IMG/VR virus record: IMGVR_UViG_2563366950_000001
DNA length: 35,797 bases
Strand: one strand, 5' to 3'
Source of the DNA: a virus
Lineage: Duplodnaviria > Heunggongvirae > Uroviricota > Caudoviricetes
The notes under the pieces are model-generated. The model did not search any database and was not told where the DNA came from. It saw only the letters and a list, made by a program, of their open reading frames with translations. The position numbers were made by a program, and so were the translations under genes. Every line of letters starts with the position of its first letter. Within the stretch, counting starts at the first letter, position 1. Positions 2,103-12,443 of this stretch are shown here, in pieces.

Positions 2103-3029
2103 TTAAATGTTTTTAATGAAAGCACAGTGGCATTTTGCTAAAAGTTTTATATTCTCAATGTCACATATGAAATCAGCATGAGTAGATATTACTTTAACTT
2201 TTCCTACGGGTATGCGGACCAATGTTCTAATGTTTATTTTGCCTTCAATTTCTACTAACCATTCACCATCAGATATTTCTTTATATCCATAGTCTACTAC
2301 GAAAACATTTTCGCTATCGATCACAACCTGCGGATTTATAAGGTTGTGTGGTATTAAAGATTTATCAAAGTGGATATAGTCCGCATCTATTAACTTACCA
2401 TTTATTAGCTTATATGCTAATAACTTTGCTACATCAGTATTTACATCGTTCGATTTTGAGCCTTTTCCAGTAACGAGCCAATCTAGTGATATACCAGTTT
2501 CAAGTGCGCATTGGATAATCCAATCGGCTGGAAATGTATCCCTCATATAACGATTAGCTAGTGTGCTTTTTGAAATACCCAAATGATCAGCTAAAGCTTG
2601 TCTTGTCTTAAATCCATAGGCTGCAACGATTCGCTCTATTGCTGCTTTTCCGTTTTGATTTATAGTAACAGTGTTCTCATTTGGGTTTTTAGGTTCTCTG
2701 TTGAGGTGCCGAGATTCACTGTTACAATTGTCGTGACTTTTATCTGCAAAGCTTTCCATTTCGGTATCAGTACCAAATGCTAACCACTCAATCGATACAC
2801 CAGTTTCCATACTACAGATAACAACCCAGTCAGCTGGGAAAGTGTCACGCGCATACCTGTTCGCCATTGTGCTCTGTGATATCCCCAGATGATTGCAGAA
2901 TGCTTGGCGTGAAGAAAAACCATACGCTTCTAATATCCGCTCGATGACTGCTTGCCCTCCGCGATTCTGCATGATTAAGGATTTCTTTTTTTCGTCCACA
3001 TGGCGAAATGTGATTTCGTGTGTTGACAT
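2103..3029 (-). CDS. CI-type immunity repressor with tandemly duplicated N-terminal helix-turn-helix domain plus C-terminal domain
   Basis: 308-aa ORF divergent from the early operon. Two internally repeated ~60-aa segments (RILEAYGFSSRQAFCNHLGISQSTMANRYARDTFPADWVVICSMETGVSIEWL and RIVAAYGFKTRQALADHLGISKSTLANRYMRDTFPADWIIQCALETGISLDWL) resemble the 186 CI N-terminal HTH fold. Its position is that of the lysogeny repressor. Confidence 0.75.
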   Translation of the reverse strand: MSTHEITFRHVDEKKKSLIMQNRGGQAVIERILEAYGFSSRQAFCNHLGISQSTMANRYARDTFPADWVVICSMETGVSIEWLAFGTDTEMESFADKSHDNCNSESRHLNREPKNPNENTVTINQNGKAAIERIVAAYGFKTRQALADHLGISKSTLANRYMRDTFPADWIIQCALETGISLDWLVTGKGSKSNDVNTDVAKLLAYKLINGKLIDADYIHFDKSLIPHNLINPQVVIDSENVFVVDYGYKEISDGEWLVEIEGKINIRTLVRIPVGKVKVISTHADFICDIENIKLLAKCHCAFIKNI

Positions 3030-3117
3030 AACCGAATTGCGATCCTATTCTCCGAAATGTGAAGTTTAAGTCACGATTAAAACTGACTCACCACAAGCCA
3101 ATAGGAGATGTTGCATC
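3030..3117. promoter_or_regulatory. divergent lysis/lysogeny switch region (early lytic promoter and repressor promoter; operators presumed)
   Basis: 88-bp gap between the divergently oriented repressor gene and the Apl/Cox-like gene. Individual -10/-35 boxes and operators were not resolved. Confidence 0.4.
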
Positions 3118-3339
3118 ATGACCCCTAACATTTCAATAACTCTGAATACGCCACATGTCACAATCGAGCGTTATAGCGAACTTACTGGTCTTTCAATCGA
3201 CACAATCAACGATATGCTGGCAGATGGTCGCATCCCTCGGCATCGTCTTCGTAAAGACAAAAAAAGAGAAAAGGTAATGATCAACCTTGCTGCTCTTACC
3301 GTTGATGCACTTACTGATTGCAATGTTGTGTTCAACTAG
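3118..3339 (+). CDS. Apl/Cox-type excisionase / early transcriptional regulator
   Basis: 73-aa first gene of the rightward early operon. Small basic HTH-like protein ([26 protein letters not shown]). GGAG ~10 nt upstream of ATG. Confidence 0.55.
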
Positions 3340-3371
3340 TTCCATTTTGGGATACATCAGGGGTGTCGACT

Positions 3372-3881
3372 ATGTTTGATTACCAAGTTTCCAAACATCC
3401 ACATTTTGATGAAGCCTGTCGTGCATTCGCACTGCGCCACAACCTGGTGCAACTGGCAGAACGTGCAGGCATGAATGTGCAGATTCTGCGGAACAAGCTG
3501 AACCCAGCTCAACCTCATTTATTAACCGCACCAGAAATCTGGTTGCTTACCGATCTGACTGAAGATTCAACGCTAGTAGATGGTTTTCTGGCTCAGATTC
3601 ACTGCCTGCCATGCGTACCGATTAATGAGGTGGCAAAAGAGAAACTGCCACATTACGTCATGAGTGCAACCGCAGAGATCGGGCGTGTTGCAGCAGGTGC
3701 GGTATCTGGCGATGTAAAAACCAGTGCAGGTCGTCGTGATGCTATCAGCAGCATTAACTCTGTAACACGACTGATGGCGCTGGCCGCTGTTTCATTGCAG
3801 GCTCGTTTACAGGCTAATCCTGCGATGGCGAGTGCAGTTGATACCGTGACTGGCCTCGGTGCTTCATTCGGTTTGCTGTGA
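3372..3881 (+). CDS. cII: CII-type lysogeny-establishment activator (186 CII-like)
   Basis: From internal ATG at 3372 the product starts [45 protein letters not shown]..., matching my recollection of 186 CII; ~169 aa. Confidence 0.8.
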
Positions 3882-3888
3882 GGTGCTT

Positions 3889-4089
3889 ATGCTGACGAAA
3901 GAACCATCATTTGCATCGCTGCTGGTAAAACAAAGTCCGGCAATGCACTACGGTCACGGCTGGATCATGGGTGAGGATGGTAAACGCTGGCATCCGTGCC
4001 GTTCACAAGATGAATTGCTGGCAGAACTATCTACGAAAAAACAGGGGAACAAATGGCTATTGAAGGCGCTGCGGCGACTGTTCCATTAA
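3889..4089 (+). CDS. small early phage protein (in the position of 186 fil)
   Basis: ORF with GAGGTG RBS just upstream of ATG at 3889; 66 aa. Function not recognised. Confidence 0.45.
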   Translation: MLTKEPSFASLLVKQSPAMHYGHGWIMGEDGKRWHPCRSQDELLAELSTKKQGNKWLLKALRRLFH

Positions 4090-5776: not shown

Positions 5777-8187
5777 GTCATGACGATATGAGCAACTCTA
5801 GCGGCTTTAACGAGGCCGCCGCATCATTTTCATGGAACGGCCCGAAAAAGGCCATTAACCCTTATCTGGACCCGGCGGAAGTTGCGCCGGAGTCTGCACT
5901 TTCAAACCTGATCACTCTGTATGCTGCCGATAACGAGCAGGAACAACTGCGCCGCGAGGCACTGAGTGAGCAGGTCTGGGAGCGTTATTTCTTTAATGAA
6001 TCCCGTGATCCTGTCCAGCGCGAAATGGAGCAGGATAAGCTCATTAGCCGGGCAAAGCTGGCGCATGAGCAGCAGCGTTTTAATCCAGACATGGTCATTC
6101 TGGCTGACGTCAACGCCCAGCCTTCCCATATCAGCAAGCCGCTGATGCAACGTATTGAATACTTCAGCAGCCTGGGCAGGCCAAAGGCTTATTCCCGCTA
6201 TTTGCGTGAGACGATTAAGCCATGTCTGGAACGGCTGGAGCATATACGCGACAGTCAGCTATCCACTTCTTTTCGCTTTATGGCGAGCCATGAAGGGCTG
6301 GACGGCCTGCTGATCCTGCCTGAAATGAGTCAGGAGCAGGTGAAACGCCTGTCCACCCTGGTAGCTGCGCATATGAGCATGTGCCTTGATGCAGCTTGTG
6401 GCGATTTGTATGCCACCGATGACGTTAAGCCAGAAGAAATCCGCAAGACATGGGAAAGGGTGGCAGCAGAAACCCTGCGACTGGATGTCATCCCACCTGC
6501 GTTTGAGCAACTCCGCCGGAAAAGAAACCGCCGTAAACCCGTGCCCTATGAACTCATTCCGGGTTCGCTGGCGCGTATGTTGTGTGCCGACTGGTGGTAC
6601 CGGAAATTATGGAAGATGCGTTGCGAATGGCGGGAAGAGCAGTTGCGCGCTGTCTGCCTGGTCAGCAAAAAAGCATCTCCCTATGTCAGCTATGAAGCCG
6701 TGATGCATAAACGTGAGCAGCGCCGTAAGTCGCTGGAGTTTTTTCGTTCTCATGAACTGGTGAACGAAGACGGCGACACGCTGGATATGGAAGACGTGGT
6801 AAACGCCAGCAGCAGCAACCCTGCACATCGCCGCAATGAGATGATGGCCTGTGTTAAAGGTCTGGAGCTTATCGCGGAAATGCGCGGTGACTGCGCCGTT
6901 TTCTACACCATCACCTGTCCGTCACGTTTCCATTCCACGCTCAATAACGGCAGACCAAACCCAACCTGGACAAATGCGACGGTAAGACAAAGCAGCGATT
7001 ATCTGGTCGGCATGTTTGCTGCATTTCGTAAGGCGATGCACAAAGCCGGGTTGCGCTGGTATGGCGTGCGGGTGGCTGAGCCGCATCATGACGGTACGGT
7101 TCACTGGCACCTGTTGTGTTTCATGCGCAAAAAAGACCGCCGTGCCATTACTGCATTGTTGTGTAAGTTTGCCATCCGTGAAGACCGCGAGGAACTGGGT
7201 AATAACACTGGTCCACGCTTTAAATCTGAGCTGATAAACCCGCGCAAAGGAACACCGACAAGCTACATCGCGAAATACATTAGTAAGAACATTGACGGGC
7301 GTGGTCTGGCTGGCGAGATCAGCAAGGAAACGGGTAAATCCCTGCGTGATAACGCTGAATACGTTAATGCCTGGGCGTCTCTGCATCGTGTTCAGCAATT
7401 CCGCTTCTTTGGTATTCCGGGGCGTCAGGCTTACCGTGAACTGCGATTGCTGGCTGGTCAGGCGGCAAGGCAACAGGGCGACAAAAAAGCAGGTGCGCCG
7501 GTACTGGATAACCCGCGCCTTGATGCCATCCTGGCTGCTGCTGATGCTGGTTGTTTTGCCACTTACATCATGAAGCAGGGTGGCGTACTGGTTCCCCGCA
7601 AATATCACCTCATCAGAACTGCTTATGAAATTAACGAAGAGCCGACCGCCTATGGCGATCACGGCATTCGTATTTATGGCATCTGGTCACCCATTGCAGA
7701 GGGCAAGATCTGCACTCATGCAGTGAAGTGGAAAATGGTTCGTAAAGCCGTTGACGTTCAGGAGGCGGTAGCCGACCAGGGCGCTTGCGCCCCTTGGACT
7801 CGTGGCAATAACTGTCCCCTTGCTGAAAATTTGAACCAACAAGCGAAAGACAAATCAGCTGATGGGGATACCAGAACGGACATCACCCGCATGGATGACA
7901 AGGAGTTGCACGATTACCTGCACAGCATGAGCAAGAAAGAGCGCCGGGAACTAGCAGCAAGGTTACGCCTGGTGAAACCGAAACGGCGTAAAGACTACAA
8001 ACAGCGAATTACAGACCATCAGCGACAGCAGCTCGTCTATGAACTGAAGTCCAGAGGATTTGATGGCAGCGAGAAAGAGGTCGATTTACTCCTTCGCGGC
8101 GGCAGTATTCCGTCAGGAGCAGGCCTGCGTATCTTCTATCGGAACCAGCGTCTGCAGGAGGATGATAAATGGCGGAACCTGTATTAA
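5773..8187 (+). CDS. A: replication initiation protein gpA (rolling-circle nicking endonuclease)
   Basis: 804-aa ORF. Contains an HxH-type metal motif (TVHWHLLCF) and the tyrosine-containing segment YIAKYISKN, as in P2 A. Confidence 0.9.
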
Positions 8188-8256
8188 TTACGCGGGTTAA
8201 CAATTCGTGCTCTTAATAATAACTGGCATATCAGGCTGATGAACGTAAAAAAACGT

Positions 8257-8297
8257 TTTACATCAGTAAGATTATTATATACTGTAAATATAAACAG
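8257..8297 (+). promoter_or_regulatory. putative sigma70 promoter (TTTACA ... TATACT) overlapped by a LexA/SOS box (CTGTAAATATAAACAG, 8282-8297)
   Basis: Perfect CTGT-N8-ACAG with an AT-rich spacer, flanked as tACTGT...ACAGtg (consensus TACTGTATATATATACAGTA). Lies in the gap after gene A, upstream of the small ORF and the DinI-like gene. Confidence 0.55.
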
Positions 8298-8340
8298 TGG
8301 TTATAAACACAGTATTCCGAGTGGTGTTATAGGAGGAAAG

Positions 8341-8529
8341 ATGCAGGACTATTTTTTGGAGTCTTTGAAGCTCCAGCGCATTGATTTTTTTCTTAAGCTT
8401 GTAGCGGCTAGTGAGTGTAGTGATGAAGAGAAGGGGCTGGCTTTGCAGTGGGTATCTGAACTGACTGATGAACTCATGGCAAAAATCAGAACCCACGAAT
8501 ACAACCGCTCAATGGATGTCATCAGTTGA
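8341..8529 (+). CDS. small hypothetical protein (first gene of the putative SOS-controlled operon)
   Basis: 62 aa from the ATG at 8341, which is preceded by AGGAGG; the longer ORF-track start at 8239 lacks an RBS and would overlap the LexA box. Confidence 0.4.
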   Translation: MQDYFLESLKLQRIDFFLKLVAASECSDEEKGLALQWVSELTDELMAKIRTHEYNRSMDVIS

Positions 8530-8539
8530 GGTGACTTTT

Positions 8540-8773
8540 ATGCGCATTGAAATAATGATCGATAAAGAGCAGAAGATTAGTCAGTCTACCCTGGACGCCC
8601 TTGAAAACGAGCTTTACCGCAATCTGCGCCCCCTGTATCCCAAAACGGTAATTCGTATCCGCAAAGGTAGCTCTAACGGTGTGGAACTGACCGGGCTGCA
8701 ACTGGACGAAGAAAGAAAACAAGTGATGAAAATTATGCAGAAGGTGTGGGAAGACGACAGCTGGTTACATTAG
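8540..8773 (+). CDS. DinI-family protein (Tum-like antirepressor module candidate)
   Basis: 77 aa from the ATG at 8540, after a GAGGTG RBS. Size and the acidic C-terminus (MKIMQKVWEDDSWLH) are typical of DinI-like proteins. Confidence 0.75.
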   Translation: MRIEIMIDKEQKISQSTLDALENELYRNLRPLYPKTVIRIRKGSSNGVELTGLQLDEERKQVMKIMQKVWEDDSWLH

Positions 8774-8993
8774 GGAACGTTGCGGACGATAAAACTGGTT
8801 TTTACCGTTCGCAAGGTTGAGCAACGAGCCGTGCGAGGCGTTAGTTATGGATAAATTGGTTGCAGGGTGATATGTAAATAGGTTAATACGTAGCACTCTT
8901 CGAATAGTTTCGTATTTTTGTTGTCCTATAATCATAAGATGACAGCCTCCATGCACCACAATCCGTGGCGTTTGAGGCATAAAGGAGGAAAAT

Positions 8994-9194
8994 ATGTCTG
9001 AACTTCTGCGCAAAGTTCTCTCTGCACCAGGTAAGATTATGCAGGATGTCATCCGTCAGGATGTGCAACAGTCTGATAATAGTAAAATTATCACAGATGC
9101 TAATGGTGCGGCGACCTTAAACATGAACAATAAGCAGGTACGTGAATCAATGCGTGCCAGAATGGAAGAATTGGCTGCAAAACGACAAGGATGA
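8994..9194 (+). CDS. small hypothetical protein (66 aa), first gene of a two-gene cargo operon
   Basis: Strong RBS AAGGAGG 6 nt upstream of ATG. Stop at 9192-9194 lies 3 bp before the next start. Confidence 0.55.
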   Translation: MSELLRKVLSAPGKIMQDVIRQDVQQSDNSKIITDANGAATLNMNNKQVRESMRARMEELAAKRQG

Positions 9195-9197
9195 GGA

Positions 9198-9980
9198 ATG
9201 GGACCCTTAGTTATCATGGTCGTCCTGGTTTGCGGGTTCTGGTACACCGAAAATCATTACCAGTCCCGCATCAGGCAAGCAAGAAGTAATGGTTGGAATT
9301 CCTATTTTTATGTAGCTATGCATGGTTGTAAGTTTGCTATTCAGGGGTTTACTCTGATGGCTGTTACATTCGTTATCTTGCTAGTTATAAGCTCAGTTAT
9401 CAATGTTTTTGGTTATTTTTGGCCTAAGTTACATGTGGACTTTTATTCATGGCTCACAGACGTAAAGATAATGTCTTACCCATTGTTCTTTGTGTTGTCT
9501 ATGCTGCTTGCGGTGTTTATTGCTTATGACCAAGGTAACAATGCGCGAAGAGCAATAGAAAACGAAGAGATTCGTCAATCTGCATATCGCGAGATGGCAG
9601 CTCAAGATGGAATTGAGTCACTGTTAGTTCAGGCTATAGATGAAGGTAAGCTCATCTTTGTTACGCTAAAATCCAGAAAAGTTTACATTGGTTACGTAGC
9701 TGCTCCTCGGATGGAGCATCAGGAAACTCAGCATCTGGCTCTCATACCATACATCAGTGGTTATCGTGATAAAGATACGCTCAGATACCATGAGCAGCAT
9801 CGTTACTATGAACTTTACCTTAGTAAAAATATTACAGCAGACTCAACTCCACTGAACTTAAATCATTTTAGGCATGTAATCCCAATGGATCAGGTTGAGA
9901 GTATTTCAATATTTGATACTGAAACTTATAAATCTTTCGAAGATTTTTCTACGCCTGACCAGACCAAAGTCACTGCATGA
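9198..9980 (+). CDS. hypothetical membrane protein (3 predicted N-terminal TM helices plus ~150-aa soluble C-terminal domain)
   Basis: 260-aa ORF, AT-rich. Hydrophobic segments LVIMVVLVCGFWY, LMAVTFVILLVISSVINVFGYFW and LFFVLSMLLAVFIAY. Translationally coupled to the upstream small ORF. Confidence 0.7.
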   Translation: MGPLVIMVVLVCGFWYTENHYQSRIRQARSNGWNSYFYVAMHGCKFAIQGFTLMAVTFVILLVISSVINVFGYFWPKLHVDFYSWLTDVKIMSYPLFFVLSMLLAVFIAYDQGNNARRAIENEEIRQSAYREMAAQDGIESLLVQAIDEGKLIFVTLKSRKVYIGYVAAPRMEHQETQHLALIPYISGYRDKDTLRYHEQHRYYELYLSKNITADSTPLNLNHFRHVIPMDQVESISIFDTETYKSFEDFSTPDQTKVTA

Positions 9981-10028
9981 CTATGCCGCATGAATATGCA
10001 TGATCGTTTGAGGATCGTTTTTGCTGAG

Positions 10029-10054
10029 GCCCGCCAGTTCTGGTGGGCTTTTGC
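10029..10054 (+). terminator. rho-independent terminator candidate downstream of the 260-aa gene
   Basis: GCCCGCCAG-ttc-TGGTGGGC hairpin (one G-U pair) followed by TTTTGC. Confidence 0.45.
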
Positions 10055-10097
10055 TTATGTCATGCACCTGCATGAAAATCGCTACAAAAAGCGGGCA

Positions 10098-10116
10098 GGC
10101 GTGGCGGGGATACGAG
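10098..10116. other. probable cos site (cohesive-end region) of the P2/186-type genome
   Basis: GGCGTGGCGGGGATACGAG followed by GCGCGCGC resembles the 19-nt cohesive ends I recall for P2 (GGCGAGGCGGGGAAAGCAC) and 186. It lies in a non-coding gap upstream of the portal end of the late region. Confidence 0.4.
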
Positions 10117-10199
10117 CGCGCGCAACTCGAGATAGTGTGATACTTATCTGAGAAATCTTAACAAGGTTCAATACAATACCCTTTCAAAAAAAGGGGAGT

Positions 10200-11354
10200 G
10201 TGATGTTTGTAAAAAATAACTTTAATACAAATAATTTCGATGCGGAATTAGTTGAAGCGATTGGTAATAGGCTGGAAAACAACCAATTTTCGGATGCAAT
10301 ACTTGCAGGAACCAAATATCTAACAACTTTGCTGCGTGAAAAAGGGCAATGTGAAGGGGATGGGGCTCAGCTTGTTGGTACTGTTTTGGGTGGACAATCA
10401 CCTAGAATCCAAATTAATAGTCTTCAATCTGTATCAGAGCAGGACGAACAGCGCGGATTTGAAGCACTATTAAGAGGCTACTATCAGTGTATAAGAAATC
10501 CAAGGACACATGACAATTTCCCTGATACAGAAGATTCCTGCATGAGAATATTGATCATGTTGGATACTTTTATTAAGTATTTAAAAAGAGATGTTGCTGA
10601 GTTCGATTACACAGCAATTCTTGAAAGAATTTATGAGGTTCACTTTGTAAATAATTCTGATTATGCAGAAGCTTTAATATCACAAATTCCAGAAAAAAAA
10701 CTACTGGATTTTTTCCAAAGTTTAATTTCTCGCTTTAATGAAAGGCCAACCAAGGAAATTGATTCTATATTCAAAGCAATAAACCAACGCTTTTCAGGAG
10801 AGGAAGAAAAAGCCGCAATGCGGTTGCTAGGTGATGAGTTACGCAAGGCTAGCAATAATGTTGAGTTTGCTAATGTATTTAGAATAATTAAGCCGAGCGC
10901 ATGGAGAAATCTTCCTGATGATGTTTTAATTAGAATGGAAAATATAATCATCGAAGAGTGCAAAAAAGGATATTTGGATTTCTATTCTGATGCGACCAAA
11001 GGAGCTATAGGAACATGGGGTAATACATTTGGTAGCAAATTTAAAAGAAGAGGTGATCTTGGTGATGCTTTAATTGGATTGTTATATGATAGTTGGTATA
11101 CGCAAAATTATGTTGCGAAATATTACGTTTTTTCAATCCCTTCTATCATTACTGATGATGTGAAAGTTAAGGAGTTAGCTGATGCTTTAGCTTATGCCAC
11201 CATTGTAAATGGTGCTAAGCTTTTACGAACAAAATTGATTGATGCATGTAAAAATTATCCTGATAAGTTGAAAGAGCATCTTAGGGATGCTGTTCAGCAA
11301 CGGATGGATAGTGATAAAAAATATGCGGAAGAATTATTAGGTCAAATAAGCTGA
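10200..11354 (+). CDS. hypothetical protein with HEPN-like N-terminal domain (Rx4H motif); candidate abortive-infection RNase
   Basis: 384-aa ORF, strongly AT-rich, GGGGAG RBS. N-terminal domain contains CIRNPRTHDNFPD (Rx4H), which I associate with HEPN/TIGR02391-like families. C-terminal ~250 aa unrecognised. Confidence 0.7.
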   Translation: MMFVKNNFNTNNFDAELVEAIGNRLENNQFSDAILAGTKYLTTLLREKGQCEGDGAQLVGTVLGGQSPRIQINSLQSVSEQDEQRGFEALLRGYYQCIRNPRTHDNFPDTEDSCMRILIMLDTFIKYLKRDVAEFDYTAILERIYEVHFVNNSDYAEALISQIPEKKLLDFFQSLISRFNERPTKEIDSIFKAINQRFSGEEEKAAMRLLGDELRKASNNVEFANVFRIIKPSAWRNLPDDVLIRMENIIIEECKKGYLDFYSDATKGAIGTWGNTFGSKFKRRGDLGDALIGLLYDSWYTQNYVAKYYVFSIPSIITDDVKVKELADALAYATIVNGAKLLRTKLIDACKNYPDKLKEHLRDAVQQRMDSDKKYAEELLGQIS

Positions 11355-11405
11355 TTATTATTTGCACCTAATCTCACTTTCGATGTTAGGTGCATTTCTA
11401 TATGC

Positions 11406-12443
11406 CTAATCTAATTCATATGAGGTAAATTTAACCAGTTCTTCATTAAGTCCAATCCATGAGTTAATTTCAGATATTCTGTGTTGTAGCGGAATTAACT
11501 CATTCCTGACAAAAACCTTACTAGCCTTTTCAACATCCCCAAACCCGCCAACATTACTAGGCATAATCCCCATCATCTGCGGCGGTACACGGTGCGCTGC
11601 CATCATGTCATCCCGGCTCACGTTCTTGATGTTCAGAAACTCATCTTTTGCCGCCACCTCTGACAGCGGGATGATCTGAATCCCGTCTTTCTTTCCGTTG
11701 GGTGAGTACATAAACAAGTTGCGGAAGTTGCCCGGCCCTTTGGCGCTTTTCATCGCATTGCGGAGGTTGTTCACATCCTCCTGGTTCTGCGCGGCATCGG
11801 TCATGTACATGATGAAGCCTGCATGACTACCGTTAATGTAATATTTGCGGCGGAACAGCGTGGCGGACTCGTTGAGCAAAGCGGATGGGATGGCAGAAAG
11901 ATAGCCGGGCAGGCCGTAGATCTCCTGATTAATATCTGGTTCCATCAGATGAAAAATGCTGCCTTTCGTGAACTGATACGGCTGGGTTGTCATACCGTAT
12001 TGCACAAACCAGTAGGTATCCAGGTCTAACCCGCGTCGGGTATATTTTGCCAGGGCAGGCTCAAGGGCGATAACTTCACCGAAGCGGTTCGTGCGTTTCT
12101 CCAGGTAGGCGTTACCAAATACCAGGTAGTCCTGCACAAAACGTGAAAAAGCCTGCTGGCTGAGCAGCGGGTGAGGGATATAGGTACTGGTCAGAATGTT
12201 GCACTTTACTGCAATCGGGGAACTGTGATGCACGGCAGCGCGGAAGGTGCGCGCCAGTCCGTCAAAGCTGACGGGCGGCTCATACCAACGGTCCATCTGT
12301 ACGCATTCCACATAGTCCAGTAATTCTCGGCGGTCCAGAACAGGAACGGGATCGCCGAAGCTGAATGCTTCGGCTGTAGTTTGACTTTTAAGCTGGATCT
12401 GATTCGTCGCCGCAGCGCGGTTCTTCTTACTCTTTCCCATCAA
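11406..12443 (-). CDS. Q: portal protein gpQ
   Basis: 345 aa, the same size and position as P2 Q; overlaps the terminase gene start (Q-P operon). Confidence 0.93.
   Translation of the reverse strand: MMGKSKKNRAAATNQIQLKSQTTAEAFSFGDPVPVLDRRELLDYVECVQMDRWYEPPVSFDGLARTFRAAVHHSSPIAVKCNILTSTYIPHPLLSQQAFSRFVQDYLVFGNAYLEKRTNRFGEVIALEPALAKYTRRGLDLDTYWFVQYGMTTQPYQFTKGSIFHLMEPDINQEIYGLPGYLSAIPSALLNESATLFRRKYYINGSHAGFIMYMTDAAQNQEDVNNLRNAMKSAKGPGNFRNLFMYSPNGKKDGIQIIPLSEVAAKDEFLNIKNVSRDDMMAAHRVPPQMMGIMPSNVGGFGDVEKASKVFVRNELIPLQHRISEINSWIGLNEELVKFTSYELD

Follow-up and report, generated by a model that had tools for sequence, protein, structure and literature searches.

The virus record IMGVR_UViG_2563366950_000001, a 35,797-nucleotide stretch referred to here as the window, is a P2/186-like prophage of the uropathogenic Escherichia coli strain CFT073, inserted beside rcdA according to the genome annotation. 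In the first cargo slot of its cos-proximal hotspot lies an autonomous accessory ("moron") cassette of 1.1 kb, made up of a -10 element, a leader hairpin, two translationally coupled genes and a terminator. The genes code for a soluble protein of 66 residues and a membrane protein of 260 residues. On sequence grounds, we tentatively regard the pair as a candidate exclusion or abortive-infection module acting in the lysogen, a plausible reading because the cassette occupies the slot that houses tin and old in P2, is modular, has defence neighbours, is found in accessory slots elsewhere, has a patchy distribution and encodes three transmembrane helices joined to an Sm-like domain in which basic and aromatic residues are invariant. 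An earlier note, made from the letters of the window, had proposed much the same. Its views that the genes are cargo and that they lie in the tin/old slot stood up, and this slot proved to be variable and to belong to a defence-bearing hotspot. A strict picture of a small antidote with a membrane killer is opposed by membrane genes that occur as orphans and by a subfamily that is stable in chromosomes. The elements of the cassette, with the cos-like boundary that follows it, are listed here.

8927..8932, + strand: -10-like hexamer TATAAT, candidate cassette promoter, read from the sequence; no recognisable -35
8953..8971, + strand: leader hairpin with a U-rich run after it, located 3' of the -10 hexamer and 5' of the ribosome binding site (RNAalifold, 9 relatives)
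8982..8988, + strand: Shine-Dalgarno sequence AAGGAGG, 5 nt before the ATG of the small gene, read from the sequence; GGAGG kept in relatives
8994..9194, + strand: small soluble partner, 66 aa, WP_001292590.1, PHROG 22451
9198..9980, + strand: inner-membrane protein, 260 aa, WP_000529102.1, PHROG 3630
10027..10056, + strand: intrinsic terminator-like hairpin GGCCCGCCAG-UUCU-GGUGGGCU, followed by UUUGCUU, closing the cassette
10098..10116, + strand: cos-like 19-mer GGCGTGGCGGGGATACGAG, 12 of whose 13 first bases are those of the annotated cosL of P2; a boundary, outside the cassette

The two open reading frames were confirmed as first described. A 2.6-kb stretch around them was 100% identical to positions 918,111-920,731 of the CFT073 chromosome (NC_004431.1), and both are annotated in RefSeq as coding sequences under the name 'hypothetical protein'. 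A word-indexed search returned 158 homologous clusters at 90% identity, all likewise 'hypothetical protein', from Enterobacterales, Aeromonas, Gilliamella and Ignatzschineria. An exhaustive HMMER profile search of 50%-identity clusters yielded 2,660 representatives at E <=0.001, 1,510 of them at E <=1e-10, and nearly all family members listed are 240-310 aa long. The ratio of nonsynonymous to synonymous substitution rates (dN/dS) was 0.03-0.1. Because of these cluster numbers, this purifying selection and the RefSeq annotation, both genes are real and conserved rather than chance open reading frames.

The gene order of the prophage runs from integrase, CI, CII, Fil and Dam to replication endonuclease A, a 62-aa protein, a DinI-like protein, the pair and a TIGR02391 protein, after which portal Q and terminase P are annotated on the opposite strand in CFT073. 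The pair has a GC content of 40-41%, compared with 52-54% in gene A, in agreement with the AT-rich character noted before. In the P2 reference record, cosL is annotated as GGCGAGGCGGGGAAAGCAC, and tin and old are placed between A/orf91 and cosR. As the cos-like 19-mer of the window matches P2's cosL, the pair, lying between the DinI-like gene that follows A and this site, is therefore exactly in the tin/old slot, as proposed.

The 3' side of the slot is defined by a backbone element of ~150 bp (~9974-10125) that starts right after the stop codon and contains the terminator hairpin, several GCATG repeats and the cos-like 19-mer. Through it, the A-to-Q hotspot is divided into two cargo slots that are independent of each other and lie on either side of cos. 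P2-like phages from E. coli, Klebsiella and Salmonella had the element whatever their cargo, those lacking the pair included, and in nearly all P2-like loci it lay 3' of the pair. Slot 1 held the pair (30-100% identity) in 46 loci with gpA upstream (28-100% identity) and portal downstream, in each case immediately 5' of the terminator and cos element; slot 2 of the same loci, 174 to 3,577 bp in size, had over 25 different contents. When gene content was compared across related prophages, slot 1 varied between near-identical ones: in EC931, the flanking orf62, HEPN and portal proteins are those of the window, and slot 1 holds a different gene. Fels-2 has other genes in both slots. The pair is thus placed between A/DinI-like and cos, at a locus variable among similar prophages, as P2-type hotspot cargo is, and not as a virion or replication component.

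Experiments support the A-to-Q region as a hotspot of defence genes (PMC9122126; PMC13586616). It was defined by Rousset et al. (2022), who validated several of its systems; these authors curated only arrangements seen at least 10 times and cloned eight systems, the pair not being among them (PMC9122126). When ten slot-2 proteins were run against defence models, five matched strongly, namely to Drt3b (5e-210), PDC-S06 (9e-265), NsnB/AriA-like (5e-75), AbiU (3e-34) and PDC-S59 (7e-30), and two more matched weakly.

In the window itself, the second slot, between cos and Q, holds a third AT-rich gene (10200-11354, + strand) for a 384-aa TIGR02391/Hypoth_Ymh protein of HEPN type. Over the N-terminal 126 residues, this protein aligns with the C-terminal part of PD-Lambda-3_B (2e-14) and with Aga_HEPN (2e-9), and it is probably, judging from these profile matches, a separate single-gene defence candidate. 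An identical HEPN gene stands behind different slot-1 cargo in many E. coli genomes, EC931 for example. A three-gene operon comprising the pair and the HEPN gene was rejected, since a terminator and cos lie in between and the two modules occur independently.

The expression signals proposed earlier were largely borne out. AAGGAGG is a strong ribosome binding site for the small gene, and the two genes are translationally coupled: the TGA of the first (9192-9194) is closely followed by the ATG at 9198, and an AAGGA within the first gene is located 6 nt before this second start. The promoter assignment held in part. The TATAAT hexamer is present, and diverged copies, both P2-borne and chromosomal, have TATAAT, TATAGT or TACAAT equally far from their start codon; however, a consensus promoter scan made no call at 8927-8932, where there is no acceptable -35 element. 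The leader GC hairpin comprises 8 pairs, 2 of them with compensatory changes among the 9 relatives, and the window copy, with two A-C mismatches, is weaker than those of its relatives. The hairpin was also seen at the equivalent position in loci L002, L003, L091, L096, L101, L103, L104 and L106, and it could be an attenuator or an mRNA-stabilising element. At the other end of the cassette, folding of 9975-10075 gave -40.2 kcal/mol (z = -3.7), and the terminator hairpin is kept in 15 aligned P2-like loci, with stem-preserving substitutions. An Rfam search over 8000-11600 returned nothing relevant.

An AlphaFold2 model of the membrane protein was built on 34 homologues (predicted local distance difference test score, pLDDT, 84.3). 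It predicts helices at residues 2-19, 33-74 and 96-121, then two linker helices and a beta-rich soluble domain of ~140 aa, in keeping with the three helices and soluble domain described in the earlier note; hydropathy agrees for the last two transmembrane helices. Residues ~138-240 are predicted to form an Sm/LSm/Hfq-like beta-barrel, in which an N-terminal helix is followed by a five-stranded, strongly bent beta-sheet with an insert of ~20 residues between strands 4 and 5. Invariant residues of this domain fall in the motifs T-L-K-S-R-K-V-Y-I-G, S-G-Y-R-D-K-D and F-R-H-V-I-P, and others are found in the first transmembrane helix and the first cytoplasmic loop; the periplasmic loop and the third transmembrane helix are the least conserved parts. 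The protein probably has its N terminus out and its C terminus in, because the first loop contains three Lys/Arg and one acidic residue.

Profile and structure searches of both proteins yielded, for the membrane protein, the Sm-like fold and a link to DUF6338, but no known defence family. Pfam, NCBIfam and PADLOC scans of the two proteins gave no significant match, and PHROGs gave families of unknown function. A profile search against PDB sequences returned nothing better than E 0.2, and Foldseek against viral structures (BFVD) returned weak generic helical matches, none at E <=0.001. One distant family member matched SM-ATX (E 0.065). A homologue of the MscS channel was considered and rejected, with no match to MS_channel (PF00924) and no MscS among the top structural matches.

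By profile comparison, the closest named family is the uncharacterised DUF6338 (PF19865), because a diverged branch from Nevskia, Alcanivorax, Aeromonas and others (alignment A4) partly matches it (9 of 29 members, best E 2.8e-7) and also aligns with the family of the window protein (alignment A1; hhalign probability 99.9%, E 8e-36, 250 columns). Through A4, this corresponds to homology at the superfamily level. The window protein itself gave no match at E <=1 and did not reach the DUF6338 gathering score of 26.5 bits; a single one of the 34 aligned family members matched (E 0.05), and the distant member P0262, at 25.1 bits, was just under the cut-off. A literature search by protein accession and locus tag found no study of the family, its sole trace being a listing in Table S5A of Rousset et al. 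(PMC9122126). DefensePredictor (Science 2026; PMC13092281), with a strict cut-off at log-odds 4, lists the 280-aa WP_000212611.1 (HHpred DUF6338, log-odds 5.10) as a 'predicted novel defense gene' as well as the 'DUF6338 family protein' WP_021544535.1 (log-odds 4.92); both are possible homologues of the window protein and give an independent lead towards defence. Neither the accessions of the pair nor those of its allele in lambdoid E. coli prophages, described below, are in the DefensePredictor tables.

The small protein was modelled as two helices, a beta-hairpin with a D-x-N-G turn and a long C-terminal helix (pLDDT 75, and 81-93 in the C-terminal half). It gave no fold match, and no match in Pfam, NCBIfam, PADLOC or PHROGs beyond PHROG 22451. 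Its conserved core reads S-P-(D/E)-K...(I/L)-x-(I/V)-D-x-(N/D)-G-x-x-x-(L/V)-N, followed by the C-terminal helix. Using a hidden Markov model built from diverse partners, we found that 154 of 161 loci have a homologue immediately 5' of the membrane gene, at gaps of -4 to +28 nt; of the seven misses, two fall at contig ends, which makes 154 of 159 testable loci.

This layout, with a small upstream gene translationally coupled to its neighbour at short distance across 154 loci, is classic for toxin-antitoxin modules, and it would suit one as well that the pair, which has no mobility genes, is found scattered in phages, on a plasmid and at chromosomal sites. A membrane toxin and its small antitoxin would then stabilise the prophage, or the toxin would fire on infection when the antitoxin decays. 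We consider such an addiction module improbable. The five true misses (loci L022, L044, L049, L054 and L058) are Erwinia/Kalamiella species sharing one syntenic context, in which the small gene has been deleted, leaving ~110 bp between an upstream transporter gene and the membrane gene. These orphan membrane proteins have kept every conserved motif, with dN/dS of 0.025-0.07 at dS ~1. As the orphan genes are under purifying selection, they speak against a simple antitoxin role of the small protein. In addition, profile and fold searches identified no DNA-binding or known antitoxin fold in the small protein, and its net charge differs between subfamilies. The loss in Erwinia/Kalamiella is in effect a natural knock-out of the first gene. 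Judging from this comparison, the membrane protein works and is tolerated without its small partner, which is nearly obligate yet dispensable. An obligatory type II toxin-antitoxin pair, with its indispensable antitoxin, was rejected on the same comparative evidence.

The cassette is mobile: it passes among the accessory slots of several families of temperate phage, and also into chromosomes. Of 5,426 complete E. coli genomes, 16 have the allele of the window (>=99.6% identity), and their sources are unrelated, including uropathogenic and avian pathogenic strains, a pig and a river. A query running from the pair across the cos element to the HEPN gene had matches in 1,251 genomes, for the most part owing to the cos element. 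The Salmonella phages SEN4 and SEN5 (Senquatrovirus) have a 30%-identical pair at the right end of their genomes, followed by a terminator. In lambdoid prophages, the pair is directly downstream of the antiterminator Q and upstream of a methylase, tRNAs and holin, the same position downstream of Q that stx occupies in Stx phages; this lambdoid allele (WP_001127354.1 and WP_000263274.1) was found in 14 of the 5,426 genomes. The pair is just before the lysozyme and holin genes in a Shewanella lambdoid prophage, and between Mor/C and endolysin, adjoining a TIR gene, in a Mu-like Aeromonas prophage. It was also found in a small integrase-AlpA islet and in a smpB-adjacent island beside an EcoRII-Vsr-Dcm restriction-modification system. 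Altogether, the pair, which lacks mobility genes of its own, turns up in phages, on a plasmid and at many places in chromosomes. Recognisable defence systems are carried by 49% of P2-like prophages, their turnover is rapid, and homologues of such cargo are also found in cryptic chromosomal islands (Moura de Sousa et al. 2026, PMC13586616). The pattern of the pair matches this picture.

Two further observations concern individual copies. In Buttiauxella and Pseudescherichia (L007, ~7800-8800; L008, ~2900-3900), a phage-type pair stands alone between rcdA and ybjL, with no P2 genes. As rcdA is where the CFT073 prophage is inserted, this looks like cargo that has outlived a decayed P2-like prophage. 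In the 36,172-bp record NZ_CP019257.1 of E. coli 13TMH22, positions 1-76 are the last 76 bases of the membrane gene, and the chromosome of this strain carries the pair too; the record may be an excised or separately assembled copy of a P2-like phage.

In the lambdoid, Shewanella and Mu-like prophages, the pair directly adjoins the late activator (Q or Mor/C) on one side and holin or endolysin genes on the other, which would make it the first genes of the late operon, with a role in the lytic cycle, either in lysis timing, in the manner of a holin or antiholin, or in a late block of superinfection. The N-out, three-helix, C-in arrangement is also the topology of class I holins. We find this very unlikely. 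P2-like phages have the pair far from their lysis genes (located at 18.9-20.5 kb in L001), the carrier phages have holins of their own, stand-alone chromosomal copies are under purifying selection with no phage genes around, and a protein of 260 aa with a folded Sm-like domain is unlike known holins. Assignment as a class I holin proper, i.e., a three-helix protein of ~70-150 aa that is the sole holin of a lysis cassette, was rejected in view of size, position in P2 and the separate holins.

If the pair serves in exclusion or abortive infection, copies of the membrane protein could join by their Sm-like domains into a ring of the kind that Sm, LSm and Hfq form. In such an assembly, 15-21 transmembrane helices would surround a cytoplasmic ring, which conserved Lys, Arg and Tyr residues would line. 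Some cue of infection, either a nucleotide or the end of a nucleic acid, would be bound by the ring at the membrane, and the membrane would then be opened or perturbed, causing abortive infection, or genome entry would be blocked, causing superinfection exclusion. The small protein would tune or target the membrane protein rather than act as an indispensable antidote. A bolder and rather doubtful extension is that the pair is the founder of a new exclusion class, in which a membrane-anchored Sm/Hfq-like ring of the DUF6338 superfamily works with an adaptor of 60-80 aa. The ring would then detect phage nucleic acid at the inner membrane and gate a pore or block genome entry; at least three temperate families (P2-like, lambdoid and Mu-like) would trade the cassette, and some Enterobacterales would have fixed it.

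Several points weigh against a defence function. Ring assembly, ligand binding and pore formation are all steps that we infer. The Sm-like assignment is one of predicted fold: hhalign of the family against E. coli Hfq gave a probability of 1.4%, and neither the window protein nor its 33 aligned relatives had an LSM/Hfq Pfam match above threshold. Neither protein of the pair matched any PADLOC-DB 2.0.0 family at E <=1, including Old, Rst/HEC, PD-T4/T7/Lambda and PDC. Cargo unrelated to defence, such as partition systems or cytolethal distending toxin, is found in phage hotspots too (PMC9122126), and the DefensePredictor lead partly reuses genomic context. Lastly, a 35%-identical subfamily is syntenic across many Pantoea species (~18 or more in one context), between an aldo-keto reductase and a LacI-type regulator or a short-chain dehydrogenase/reductase, with no phage genes nearby. 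A second conserved context, in Erwinia, lies between a major facilitator superfamily sugar transporter and crcB, again with no phage genes nearby. Such a stable chromosomal subfamily, with dN/dS of 0.03-0.1, is more in line with a physiological role than with a defence gene of fast turnover.

The chromosomal copies thus raise the possibility, which we hold to be somewhat on the unlikely side, that the family is a physiological or lysogenic-conversion factor of the inner membrane, involved in anchoring or sequestering RNA or in envelope or ion homeostasis, and borrowed by phages as a fitness gene. Strong purifying selection among housekeeping neighbours in Pantoea and Erwinia is what such a factor would display, and the family is very large (2,660 clusters) and uniform in length; moreover, the same prophage has another gene of probable conversion type, coding for an Acyl_transf_3 acyltransferase. 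On the other hand, the phage-borne pair always sits in hypervariable accessory slots beside defence genes, is missing from most E. coli, and formed no operon with a metabolic or envelope pathway in the contexts examined. Chromosomal and phage-type copies also coexist in several Pantoea genomes (L003/L026, L004/L052 and L020/L032), arguing that the two subfamilies are not simply interchangeable.

A candidate exclusion or abortive-infection module is the reading that we retain, tentatively, for the phage-borne pair. The hotspot and the use of membrane effectors in prophage defence are already known, whereas these protein families and the membrane-tethered Sm-like architecture are absent from characterised systems. 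The A-to-Q hotspot has repeatedly been a source of new immune systems, and the cassette is one occupant of it; a membrane-tethered Sm/Hfq-like domain would be without precedent among characterised defence effectors. If the defence reading is true, bacterial immunity would gain an effector and sensor architecture of a new kind, and the DUF6338 superfamily a function. If it is not, the chromosomal copies in Pantoea and Erwinia point to a membrane-associated cellular function that phages have borrowed.

The prophage has AT-rich cargo in two other places. On the minus strand at 24551-25582 (29-34% GC), right after the tail-fibre assembly gene and hence in a P2 Z/fun-type accessory position, is the Acyl_transf_3 gene (2.7e-40), whose product is, by its family, probably an O-antigen- or receptor-modifying enzyme of lysogenic conversion. 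Also on the minus strand, at 1119-2090 (32-36% GC), a 323-aa open reading frame is located between integrase and the CI repressor, as cargo in the int-cI accessory position. It gave a weak match to DUF2207_C, a predicted membrane-protein domain (5e-5), and no PADLOC match.

Among named families and folds, DUF6338 resembles the family of the pair in that its model spans the transmembrane region and the start of the beta-barrel, but the window protein and 33 relatives fall below the model threshold, and the link provides a name rather than a mechanism. With Sm/LSm/Hfq proteins, and with WYL domains, the membrane protein shares a predicted small beta-barrel fold; unlike them, it has no sequence-profile similarity, is anchored by three helices and has the insert of ~20 residues between strands 4 and 5. 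Tin and Old of P2 occupy the same slot, between A/orf91 (in the window, the DinI-like gene) and cos, and are likewise AT-rich, non-essential cargo ending beside cos. They are not homologous to the pair, however: Old is an ATPase-nuclease, Tin is soluble, the PADLOC models for Old gave no match, and both genes are on the minus strand in P2, whereas the pair has the opposite orientation.

Lambda RexAB, Kiwa KwaAB and the 2TM-1TM-TIR system of the P2-like phage AC1 resemble the pair in that a soluble protein is combined with a membrane protein of several helices, the site of action plausibly being the inner membrane. That of AC1 lies in the same P2 hotspot (PMC9122126). In contrast to these systems, to which it has no sequence relationship, the pair has a tiny soluble partner (66 aa) that is dispensable in one clade, and its presumed sensor domain is fused to the membrane protein itself. 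In domain order, the membrane protein is most readily compared with MscS channels. MscS has three transmembrane helices, with the N terminus out and the C terminus in, followed by an Sm-like beta domain that forms a heptameric ring, and the window protein is predicted to have the same three helices, topology and cytoplasmic Sm-like beta domain; to our knowledge, MscS is the only well-known precedent for this domain order.

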